Assembly: GCF_032062105.1 (NCBI RefSeq)
Contig: NW_026921466.1
Span: forward strand, 1 to 64,000
Source: Saccostrea cucullata
Lineage: Eukaryota
DNA length: 64,000 bases
Direction: 5' to 3'
In this document: positions 9,301-17,713 of the stretch, one piece after another
Layout: each line of letters opens with the position of its first letter
Position numbering within the stretch: position 1 is the first letter of the stretch
The notes under the pieces: generated by a model
What the model was told of the DNA's origin: nothing
Seen by the model: the letters and a program-made list of their open reading frames with translations, nothing else
The model's database searches: none
Translations under genes and position numbers: made by a program

Positions 9301-11240
9301 TTAACACGTACCCAAATATTTGGTGGTGTTTGTCTTATCAGAAGGAGTTGCAGTAGTTTTAATTGTGATGGAAGTGTGGGTAAGGGTGATGAATGTTTTA
9401 CATTGATAAATAAAAAAAATATGAAAGTATACTTATTTATACTGTATCCTTACAGTGATCAATTTCCATCTAGAGTTATCGTTCCTGTTACCCTCCACTT
9501 ATACACGAAGTTGGGAAAGATAATTCTGGATAGATTTTGAAAAATGTTATGCTATACCCTTCATGTGGGTCAATTACATGATACATAATAATAGTAAAAT
9601 GTATATAGGTTACATACTTACTTGTATTCTGAACATTGTTCTGGTCCGTTTCCTTTTTCCTAGGGTTCTAAAAATATACGAAAAGTTCGATGTAAAAGGA
9701 ACATTGAGCGCAATCTTATAAGGGAAATATTATTTCTTTGATTTAAAAAAAAAACAAGTTTATCTTTTAAAAAGATAGGTGAGCTAGCGCCGTAGCAATT
9801 TTTAAACACAAAAAGGAAGATCCGTGATCAAGTGATTTATTTTGCTGAATTCCTTAATTTTTATCGAGGCTGGAGAGTAATAAAGTTATTGTTGGTTTGT
9901 AAAGCGTATTTTATAGACACATAGGTAAAGAAACAAGGGGGGGGGGGTTGACCTATTGGAGTTTTGGCGCAACGGAACATATATGACCTTTACTGGAGAG
10001 GGGGGGGGGGCTCTCTATAATATGAAGAAGATGCCGATTGAGACATTGCATTTATGAGCTGATTAAAAGAAAAGAATTTCTTGGCAATTTAGCAAAGAAG
10101 GTACATGGGAGTTGAAAGGAATATAGAAAATAACTCAAAGTGTATGTTGTGAAAAGAGTCCAGAGAGTTTGGAACACATGTGAAATAGCTTGGTCCTGTA
10201 CGTGGGTCATCTTTGTCAAGATATGTTAGGTTAAAAGCCATACACATCAGAATTTTTAAAACACAAATAGTGGATTTATTCGTTGTTTTTAGTGTAAATT
10301 CTTGCTTCTGTTTCTGGAATTTGTAAGATTGGCTGAAATGACCAATCAGAAATTAGAATCTATCTTTGATGTATCTATGCTTAGATGTAAAAAAAAAAAA
10401 ATCCCTTGTCATTGTTTAGAACAATCAGATAATGACTCGGGTTCTGCCGTCAGCAAAAAAAACCCAGAATTTGAAATATTATAAATATCTTTAAAGTGTA
10501 AGCTACACAATAAATGAACAGTTATTTCATGCTAAAACATGATACAACGAAATTGTTATCGTAAGGTCTATCTGTAGTAGTTTTCACATTTGTCCCAATC
10601 GGCAATCCTCGGCTGACTCCGCTCCGCTTCATTCAAACGTGTTATGTGCGAGGTACGAGTCATCCGAGGAACTCCGATCGAGTGCAGTTTTCCCAGAATG
10701 CACCACCATGGCGGCCGAGCATGCGTATTAAAGGAATTTGGACTAACGTAGTTGCTAGAGCGCTAGCAATTATATGAATAGTATTATTATAATTGAGTAA
10801 CCTAATTAAATTTCTCTTACTAACCACAGTTCAAATCGTTCGAGTCTTAAATGGAGATACTGAAGAATTGGGTATGACCGGTCACCGTGACCTTGTTACA
10901 ACAGCAATTGGTAACAAATACCTCGCCGACTTCCTCCACGTTTACGGTTAATTTAAAACAAAAAAAAACATAATTTCACTTCTCTTTGTTGTTGAGAAAA
11001 TGACAAAGTCATACAAAGTGTAAGAATGAAAAAAAAAAAACTTTCCATTGTTAACCTGGAGATCGTTTCACAAAAGCATCGTAAGTTGTACGTAGTACGT
11101 AAGTACGACGTAAGTAGTGCGTAGTTAAATTTCGGCGTTTCACGAAAGCGTCTTAATTCACATTGCGTCGTACGTAACGACGTAATTTTACGTCACCTCA
11201 GAGGTGACGTAAAATCACGTCATAACGTGAGTACTTGAAA

Positions 11241-14070
11241 ATGGCAGCGTTTTTGCGGTTCTACGATGACGAGACACGAAAAAGTTTGAGGCGGCAGCGT
11301 ATTTTTAGAGACAGGTTAAACCCACTTAACTCATATTGTGATGAAGAGATGATTAAGAGGTTCCGTTTAGATAGAGGATCAATCCTAAGTATTTTAGACA
11401 ATGTCGGTGAGCAGCTGGAAAGACCTACAAAGCGCTCTCAAGGTTTGCCAGCATCCATACAATTATTCGCCGCACTTAGATTCCTAGCTTCGGGGACAGA
11501 ACAGAGAGTCATCGGCGATACTCTTGGTATCTCAAAGTCATCGGTGTGCAGGTCGGCGAATGTTTAAATTATGAAATATATGTCTTTTTAATTTGATAGA
11601 AATGAAACATGTGTACTACTATTAGACTGTATATTAAAAGAAATACACATTAGTTTATAGAATATGTCGCCATTGTGTATAGATTTTTTTTTTCAAAATA
11701 TTTATTTATTATACATATGCAGTATCATATTATTTAAACAGAAAATTCCTTTATTTTTATGACATCTAAATGTTAAGATTTGAATATAATGTTGCAAGCT
11801 TAATATAGCAGAGACACTTAAGATCATACTCTGTTTACAGATCAATTGACAAAGTAGTCCAAGTTTTGTCCACATCTTTGAACACCATTAAATTTCCATC
11901 TGAAGATGCAGACATTTTGAAAACAAAACACGGGTTTTATTCAATTGCGGGGTTTCCAAACGTGGTCGGTGCAATTGACGACACGCTTATTCCTATTACA
12001 GCGCCAAAACCTGACGAGCACCTGTACATATGTCGGAAAGGATTTCATTCCATCAACGTACAAGCCATTGTTGATTCTGACTTGAAGTATGTCCCTATAA
12101 TATTCCTAATATTTGTAACATTCACTATATACTAATAAGTGAAACATTAATTCCATTCGTTTTAATTGACAAATGTTGTTATTAAAAAGCATCTTTGTTT
12201 ATACAAAACACGACGGTAGTGTCAAGTTCAGCCGAAATTCCTTTTTCTCAGTGAAATATTTTCAATACACATGGCAAAGTGTGATGTATTGATAATTCTG
12301 AATTATAAAAGTCTAACATTTTTAGCCTTAACGTTTCATTCTTCTTGATGTTCAATGGGAATATAAATACCGGTAATTCATTGAGTTTAATAACAAAAAT
12401 TATGATTCGCGGTGAGAGAAAAAGAGAATAATTTGAAATATGCACAGGCACGTAGCATCGTTTTTGAAAGTGTGGGGGGGCCAACCTGAGAAAATTTTTT
12501 TTACTTACTTGAAAAAGTTGACAAGCAAAAAAGAGAAAAAAAAGGAAAATTGAAAGTATATAAAGCCAATGACGTATCATATACTATGGTTATAAAGTGG
12601 GGGGGGGGGCAACCATCCTATCAATGGACATTTACTATAGTAAAGGTTATGCAGCCTGATGCATGAAAGAATGTAAAGCCAATGACGTATCATCGTTCTA
12701 AGAAGGGCAGCCAGAGGGGTAACATTTTCAACATTACCTGATGAAAACTTGACGAGCAAAAAAAGAAAATAGGACACCCCCCCCCCCTTGTCAGATTGTC
12801 CACACTCGAGAATCTTATTTCATGTGTTTCGAAATTCTTTAAGTACCATTTATTATTCATACACTACTATAATATTATACCTGTATTTGACTTTCCTCAA
12901 GGAAAAAAAGTTAGGGGGGCTGACCCCCCCCCCATCCGTTGCTACGTGCCTCTATAACTTAGGGTTACTCAGTATATACGTTTAGACCATTATTATTAAT
13001 TGTACTAGGTTTCTGAGTGTAGTGAGAAAATGGCCTGGGGCAACACACGATGCCTTTATCTGGGCAAATTCTGGTATTGCACGCAAGTTCGAGAGGAGCG
13101 AAATTGATGGGTGGTTACTTGGCGACTCCGGTTATCCTTTAAGGCCTTGGCTTTTAACTCCAGTGAATAACCCTAAATATCGAGGGGAACAGAGTTACAA
13201 TGGATCCCACAGAAAAACCCGTGTTGTTGTAGAACAGGCTTTTGGAGTTCTGAAGTCCCGATTCAGGTAAGGCTAAAAGTGTCTTTTAAGGCTGAACAAA
13301 GAAAGTTTGGTCCGAATACCATCGGGATGCCATGATAATGTATACGGTAAATATTGCCTCTAGCTGAGTGTAACATTGAAAATGTTCACCTCAAGAAAAT
13401 CATTGTTAACCGAAGCATATTGTAAAACAAATACAGTGGACCTTGCGCGCATGGAATATCACCTGTCGCCAGGCAATGTTAACTGTTGCTATGCTTGAGA
13501 GTGTCGCTTTATTATTCAGCCATTAATTGTACATTTTAACACATGTTTCTCAGACTAAATGCGAATCAGACTAAACTAATTTACTTGAAAGTACTGTATA
13601 AAGCAATCAAATTATTAATTGGTTAAGAACTCGCGGTGCATGTTATTTAGAAGAAATGTTGCAAGTTTTTTTTTTTTTTTTCAAGCCTTTAAATGGGTAA
13701 ATATAATCCTTAAAAGGAAGAAAAAATAAAGTTTGCTGGTTTATAAATTGTATTCTTGTACCTTGAATCCTCTATTCTTCATTATATACATGTAGCTTAA
13801 GTTAGTCACTTAAACATTTATTCTTACATACATAGATGTCTTCATAAAACCGAAAGTGCTCTTAATTATGAACCAGAGAAATGCTGCATGATAGCGTATG
13901 TTTGCTGTCAACTGCATAATATCTGCATTGACTTGAAGCTTCCTATACTTGAAGAGGACGAGATGGATGACATTAATGATGCGGACCGGGACGGCGATCT
14001 TACCTATCAAGGACCTCTGAACGATGGCAAGACAGTGAGAGAAGCGTTAATTCGTCAGCGTTTTTTGTAA
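11241..14070 (+). CDS. Harbinger (HARBI1-like, DDE_Tnp_4) transposase, 4 exons, 349 aa
   Basis: Exons 11241-11551, 11841-12086, 13009-13266, 13836-14070 (1050 nt, all GT-AG, no internal stop). Motifs LRFLASG..Q..IGD..GISKSSVCR, FPNVVGAIDDT, RKGFHSINVQ, WPGATHDA, LLGDSGYP, TRVVVEQAFGVLKSRFR, CCQLHN. Confidence 0.9.
12446..12951. mobile_element. MITE in transposase intron 2
   Basis: 12-bp TIR aggcacgtagca / tgctacgtgcct with subterminal G/C runs; no clear TSD. Confidence 0.55.
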
Positions 14071-14187
14071 AAATAAGTAAACTTATTGCATATATGGAAA
14101 ATTTAGAAATCAATGGATTTGAAAAGAGAGAGTAACACATAGAATCTGTCAAGTGTGCAATTTTAATCAATTCCCAAAGATTCATTT

Positions 14188-17385: not shown

Positions 17386-17552
17386 TTTATTGAACTTCCG
17401 GTAAAATTAGGTACTTCGTAAGTTGCGCATATTCTACGACAGTTCTAAGTACCTTTCGTGAAACGGTCGTAACGTAGTGCGTAGGTACTACCTAAGTTCG
17501 TCGTAACTCACTAAGTAGTACGTAATTTACGATGCTTTTGTGAAACGATACC

Positions 17553-17578
17553 CTGGTCTTGGAAACATCCCAGATATT
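17553..17578 (-). pseudogene. WSC module 5, first 26 nt only
   Basis: Acceptor plus EYLGCFQDQ identical to module 3, then directly the Harbinger right TIR. Confidence 0.85.
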
Positions 17579-17713
17579 CTATGTAGGAAAGAGAGACAGC
17601 AGAAATTTGTTTCTACATTTTATGTAATTTACTACATCGTCAATTCCGATAAAGTATAACGTATCTCATCCGGAATTCTACAACTATTCTTTAAAAAATA
17701 AATCGAGGATATG

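Follow-up and report, generated by a model that had tools for sequence, protein, structure and literature searches.

In the assembly of the oyster Saccostrea cucullata, a PIF/Harbinger element joins flanks from two different loci

In the assembled sequence of contig C3603 of Saccostrea cucullata, a PIF/Harbinger element joins the 5´ half of a WSC gene to the coding part of a second, unrelated and decayed gene, termed gene Y, in the same orientation. The window, the 64,000-nucleotide stretch of DNA that was analysed, contains this element as 6,494 bp with two genes at 11059–17552. Both junctions read as clean target sites from two different loci, because the CTG at each junction is native to its own flank. 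The sequence is thus not that of an ordinary single insertion, in which the two flanks rejoin into one empty site. We favour a real element-mediated rearrangement on one haplotype, to which we assign a probability of roughly 0.55. The features of the region are as follows.

8380..9670 (approximate), minus strand: more gene Y exon remnants, short and Thr-rich, 70% similar to C2006
10826..11048, minus strand: first coding exon of gene Y, with the ATG at 11048, a signal-peptide-like start and a small Cys domain
11056..11058, plus strand: CTG of the left junction, a native part of gene Y's 5´ leader; C21757 and C6225 have paralogous sites without an element
11059..17552, plus strand: PIF/Harbinger DNA transposon with its two ends and two genes in place
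11059..11087, plus strand: left terminal inverted repeat, 26 of 29 bases matching the right end
11241..14070, plus strand: transposase gene with open frames in four exons, splice sites assigned by eye
12439..12657, no strand assigned: nested insertion of 219 nt, missing from the C19666 copy
14200..17385 (left bound approximate), minus strand: Myb/SANT-like gene, several exons, Myb_DNA-bind_5
17524..17552, minus strand: right terminal inverted repeat, matching the left end at 26 of 29 bases
17553..17555, plus strand: CTG of the right junction, equal to the Gln codon CAG of WSC unit-5 exon A
17553..17578, minus strand: WSC unit-5 exon A fragment, the first 26 nt, ending on the CAG codon
19021..24021, minus strand: WSC units 1–4, two exons each, odd and even types alternating

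The element belongs to the PIF/Harbinger superfamily by its DDE transposase, its Myb/SANT-like gene, the size of its terminal inverted repeats (TIRs) and its 3-bp target preference. Of the four transposase exon frames (about 11241–11551, 11841–12086, 13009–13266 and 13836–14070), three match DDE_Tnp_4 in a profile search with a best E of 1e-17; exons 2 to 4 cover positions 1–41, 42–131 and 132–158 of the profile in turn, and only exon 3 passes the cut-off singly. A Gly>Asp change at 11981, private to the window copy, lies beside the first catalytic Asp. The second gene is identified by a Myb_DNA-bind_5 match on a minus-strand exon (E 1e-13). The introns hold nested high-copy short elements at 12439–12657 and about 14515–15100. 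Among the loci examined, 26 of 31 distinct element ends adjoin a CWG triplet (CAG 14, CTG 12), which makes matching CTGs weak evidence for one insertion. CWG is also the target of zebrafish Harbinger3_DR. Unlike in Harbinger3_DR and other animal Harbingers, the two CTGs of the window element are not one duplicated site. The element otherwise resembles autonomous animal Harbingers, which are described as carrying a transposase together with a Myb-like gene between inverted repeats of 25–50 bp, with a 3-bp target (PMC9179366). The initial annotation had argued that a fixed CWG target masks such a junction and would make the target-site duplication (TSD) look intact in either case. The masking holds; the duplication does not always look intact, because unrelated flanks match only about half the time.

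One other copy exceeds 97% identity. It lies at C19666:1026–7293, is 97–98% identical to the window copy, and sits in a satellite of about 175 bp with its own flanks in register. This copy is flanked by CTG (1023–1025) and CAG (7294–7296), so that its target differs in the middle base alone, which may reflect a point change or cutting inside the duplicated triplet; cutting within the duplicated triplet has been proposed for mPing (PMC4561436). Identical flank triplets were found at one of the four other distinct two-ended element loci, and one element locus is duplicated on C13653 and C7534. The window and C19666 copies differ by 104 substitutions, which count as 84 events. Outgroup polarity places 49 changes on the window copy and 40 on C19666, with 11 unplaced, and the changes are spread along both copies. 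Unequal first bases of the two TIRs were considered as a sign of a chimera and rejected, since the C19666 copy has the same pair.

The left flank is the start of gene Y, in agreement with the initial annotation that it does not continue the WSC exon and that no remainder of the exon lies in 1–11058. When all four units were compared with the window by blastn (word size 7), only chance-level matches (E at least 0.07) fell in that interval. The gene Y ATG lies 7 nt from the left-junction CTG, and the first exon is frameshifted and carries a stop in the window copy. Positions 10981–11058 match C21757 at 91%, and a search with the C21757 sequence returned only C6225 and the window besides (three of three candidates). 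Both C21757 and C6225 cross the CTG without an element and run on into a leader unrelated to WSC. The left CTG is thus native elsewhere and its empty paralogues continue differently, which confirms the earlier view that the flanks come from different loci. Two other readings of the left flank were rejected: the 78 nt next to the element are not filler DNA, being the coding start of gene Y, and the flank is not the WSC gene's own stalk or tail, for which tblastn of all collected proteins gave nothing at E<=1e-3. The Cys domain resembles those of open paralogues on C5986 and C8842, both of which also have Thr-rich stretches. The family (window 8380–11048 on the minus strand, three matches on C2006, and C5986, C8842, C21757 and C6225) has a layout of signal peptide, Cys domain of about 50 residues, Thr-rich stalk and hydrophobic segment. 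A named protein relative was found among none of 16 candidates. A 233-codon open frame at 7596–8297 (minus strand), within the region downstream of gene Y, has no Pfam match at E<=0.1. Elsewhere in the window, 3904–4033 and 6298–7391 form a high-copy element of about 1.2 kb, 91–99% identical to dozens of contigs and split by a 2.3-kb insert. Long open frames of 413, 469, 266 and 626 aa at 52472–56506 (plus strand) and 61504–63384 (minus strand) are probably retroelement remains.

On the right, the initial annotation correctly placed the flank in a WSC exon up to its CAG codon, the retained piece being the first 26 nt of unit-5 exon A. Positions 17553–17596 are identical to unit 3 at 42 of 44 nt (E 7e-15). 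Unit-2 exon A carries a 1-nt frameshift, which could be an assembly error, and unit 3 carries a Cys>Phe change. The database gene model P0001 (Saccostrea cucullata) is 100% identical to the tested window exons, covers part of unit 2 to unit 4, and ends after unit 4. Translated onward from the unit-5 fragment, the frame reaches a stop after 13 codons of element sequence (codons read by hand). A signal-peptide exon of the WSC gene was looked for and not identified, and no intact six-unit orthologue was recognised, the nearest others being 66–70% identical. Had the exon already been truncated before insertion, an allele running from the left flank straight into the exon would be expected; no such allele was seen, and the exon is intact through the CAG in other animals. 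In the three public runs that represent another sample, four contigs each run from 17553 into an intact exon with unit-3-like letters, so these loose ends are not unit 5's own empty allele. A comparison with four public runs over 10300–19700 was dominated by nested repeats. In a narrower one (three runs from one sample, the fourth from another), no contig bridged the right junction among 32 of 97 pieces listed, and contigs cannot prove absence. Of 14 public runs, each available in contig form, none contained as much as half of the sampled words.

A candidate for the missing part of the WSC gene lies on contig C7364. Searching the genome with the part of unit 3 that starts at the CAG yielded 38 matches (36 of 36 candidates scored), one of which begins with query base 19 precisely at the terminus of C7364 (25,688 bp). 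This contig end is a WSC exon A without its first part, lies 15 nt from the break in the unit-3 register, and holds no element bases. Units were typed by 22 columns that separate units 1 and 3 (odd) from units 2 and 4 (even). Unit 5 has six odd, one even and three other columns, with 12 uncovered; the C7364 end unit has five odd and no even columns, with 17 uncovered; and the next C7364 unit, with 14 even and 8 odd of 22, leans to the even type. In this last unit 10 nt are deleted; the original frame runs to a stop followed by unrelated DNA, like a terminal exon. The end unit is 76–83% identical to units 1–4, about their mutual distance, and is thus not closely allelic to any one of these units. 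By a rough, post hoc estimate, the chance that a contig ends within 20 nt of an odd-unit CAG is about 2%. In the simplest reading, C7364 probably carries units 5´ and 6 of a six-unit WSC gene. The 3´ part, which the initial annotation had described as lost or displaced, is probably held at this contig end, and loss is unlikely. Separately, a 9.5-kb insert (L120:1–9497; C7364 about 16000–25497) cuts unit-5 exon B after 7 nt, at TA; beyond it the rest of exon B and most of the next intron are gone, a second one-sided loss in the WSC gene.

In the rearrangement that we favour, the element would have inserted into WSC unit 5, and its left end would then have been linked, on one haplotype only, with another CTG target, either through alternative transposition of that end or through recombination with a further copy located in the gene Y leader. 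The join would have removed or displaced the intervening DNA. C7364 would represent either the haplotype without the rearrangement or the reciprocal product, truncated at the point at which its path reaches C3603. The predicted product is a four-WSC protein with a short element-derived tail, and gene Y would be separated from its promoter. An element end lying exactly at a new CWG target is a trait of alternative transposition, and is also expected under recombination or a misjoin; an exact end on a native CWG on both sides can be reached by three routes, namely alternative transposition, recombination between two insertions, and crossing by the assembler. Transposase action and ectopic recombination fit the data alike and are not distinguishable here. 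The earlier proposal of an adjacent deletion or inversion by intramolecular transposition, or of recombination between copies, therefore stands as far as the different loci are concerned; the data single out neither, and no inversion partner was found.

The main competitor, which we rate as a serious possibility below even odds, is a join made by the assembler. Two ordinary, near-identical insertions, one in WSC unit 5 and the other 7 nt upstream of gene Y, would have been crossed during assembly and C7364 orphaned. Misassembly, which the initial annotation had named as grounds for refutation, stays live because C7364 stops 15 nt short of the break, as a misjoin would leave it. The assembly is fragmented (23,869 contigs) and retains duplicates of 99.4–99.9% identity; 3-kb stretches identical at 99.3–99.9% are present in the three contigs C13299, C1758 and C23063, and redundancy is unpurged in places. 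Divergence from C19666 drops from 1.6% to 0.7% near 15480, as it might in a chimera, with p 0.046 under uniform shuffles; under block shuffles, however, the step is not significant (p 0.23), and recombination would fit it equally. No second allele was found in the assembly for unit 5, units 1–4, 10790–11058 or 29512–30134, that is, on either side of the element. In a hemizygous locus, C7364 and the WSC 5´ half would lie on one haplotype, and this would favour a balanced exchange or a misjoin. Whole-region searches for a second haplotype were dominated by high-copy repeats and uninformative (best 40 of 10,409 and 39 of 27,318 scored). A simple cis deletion also predicts the gene Y leader on the other haplotype, and this leader was not found; among the contigs examined none besides C3603 carries a gene Y relative together with a WSC unit. 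The left junction lies just 11 kb from the contig start.

Several observations nevertheless argue for a real join over one made by the assembler. For a misjoin, a near-identical copy would have to be hidden, and another orphan flank would have to exist. On C19666, the single copy with more than 97% identity has its own in-register flanks, and the long copies on C19666 and C13653 are assembled through with consistent flanks. The second orphan flank would be the gene Y leader beside an element right end or at a contig end, and none was found in the leader search (three of three candidates) or among 15 other right ends. C7364 ends without element bases, whereas on C16069 and C4187 the contig breaks fall inside the element. 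The native CTG on both sides, and a C7364 end unit that is odd-type like unit 5, not allele-like, and followed by an even-leaning unit with a terminal stop, also count for the favoured reading.

It is improbable that C7364 is instead a paralogous array whose contig end fell there by chance, the true 3´ half having been deleted beside the element and gone from the animal, in line with the initial annotation: WSC arrays are duplicated on C12175, C16506, C13299, C1758 and C23063, array stretches that are homologous between C12175 and C16506 share no more than 80–89%, and in one stretch the last C7364 unit reaches 92% similarity to unit 2, but this reading needs the coincidence of about 2% estimated above, and no 5´ half of a second array of such type was found.

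The class of event proposed here is already known from mPing, Ac/Ds, P and Galileo elements. In rice, 9 of 16 rearrangements are reported with mPing at their breakpoints; the deletions span 0.7–56 kb, have an element end at one breakpoint in four of nine cases and at both in five of nine, in some cases remove parts of genes, and are ascribed to aberrant transposition (PMC7584900). mPing resembles the oyster element in belonging to the PIF/Harbinger superfamily and in lying at breakpoints. It differs in being a MITE with TWA targets, and its rearrangements were seen against known parents and validated by PCR (PMC7584900). The oyster element is autonomous-type, targets CWG and is known from sequence only. 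Hybrid insertion of P elements and sister-chromatid or reversed-ends transposition of Ac/Ds likewise leave a complete element that keeps one of its original flanks and at its other end forms a new, exact junction with a target; the 8-bp duplications of those elements reveal which partner is the reciprocal one (PMC3744419). The 3-bp CWG of the oyster element cannot do so. No reciprocal junction of the oyster rearrangement was found among 15 other left and 15 other right element ends, nor was any of those left ends joined to the WSC remainder. Galileo in Drosophila buzzatii also shows exchanged flanks around intact-looking copies, and there chimerism of the copies separates recombination from hybrid insertion (PMC2775673). 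For Galileo both breakpoints and the uninverted chromosomes were available; the oyster offers a single junction copy. A targeted literature search, from which subscription papers were mostly excluded, found no alternative transposition by an animal Harbinger.

Both host genes carry other lesions, and a functional effect of the join is unlikely. Judged from its sequence, the WSC locus resembles a tandem array decaying within repeat-rich DNA rather than a new functional gene. If the join was made by the assembler, C3603 is chimeric at 11–17.5 kb and the WSC gene model is truncated. Matching CWG triplets are no proof of a single insertion. We consider a bolder account rather doubtful: that one oyster combines parent and product of a rearrangement brought about recently and directly by an autonomous-type Harbinger transposase, in which the left end re-inserted 7 nt before the gene Y start codon and gene Y was fused behind the first half of the WSC gene, and that the fixed CWG target hides such events from TSD-based annotation, so that they might commonly, though uncounted, give rise to hemizygosity in bivalves. 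In oysters, up to 14% of bases are reported to be hemizygous (bioRxiv 10.64898/2026.02.10.705023). If the favoured rearrangement is real, the junction would show Harbinger-linked gene breakage occurring naturally in an animal, and would illustrate on a small scale how oysters come by element-linked structural variants.
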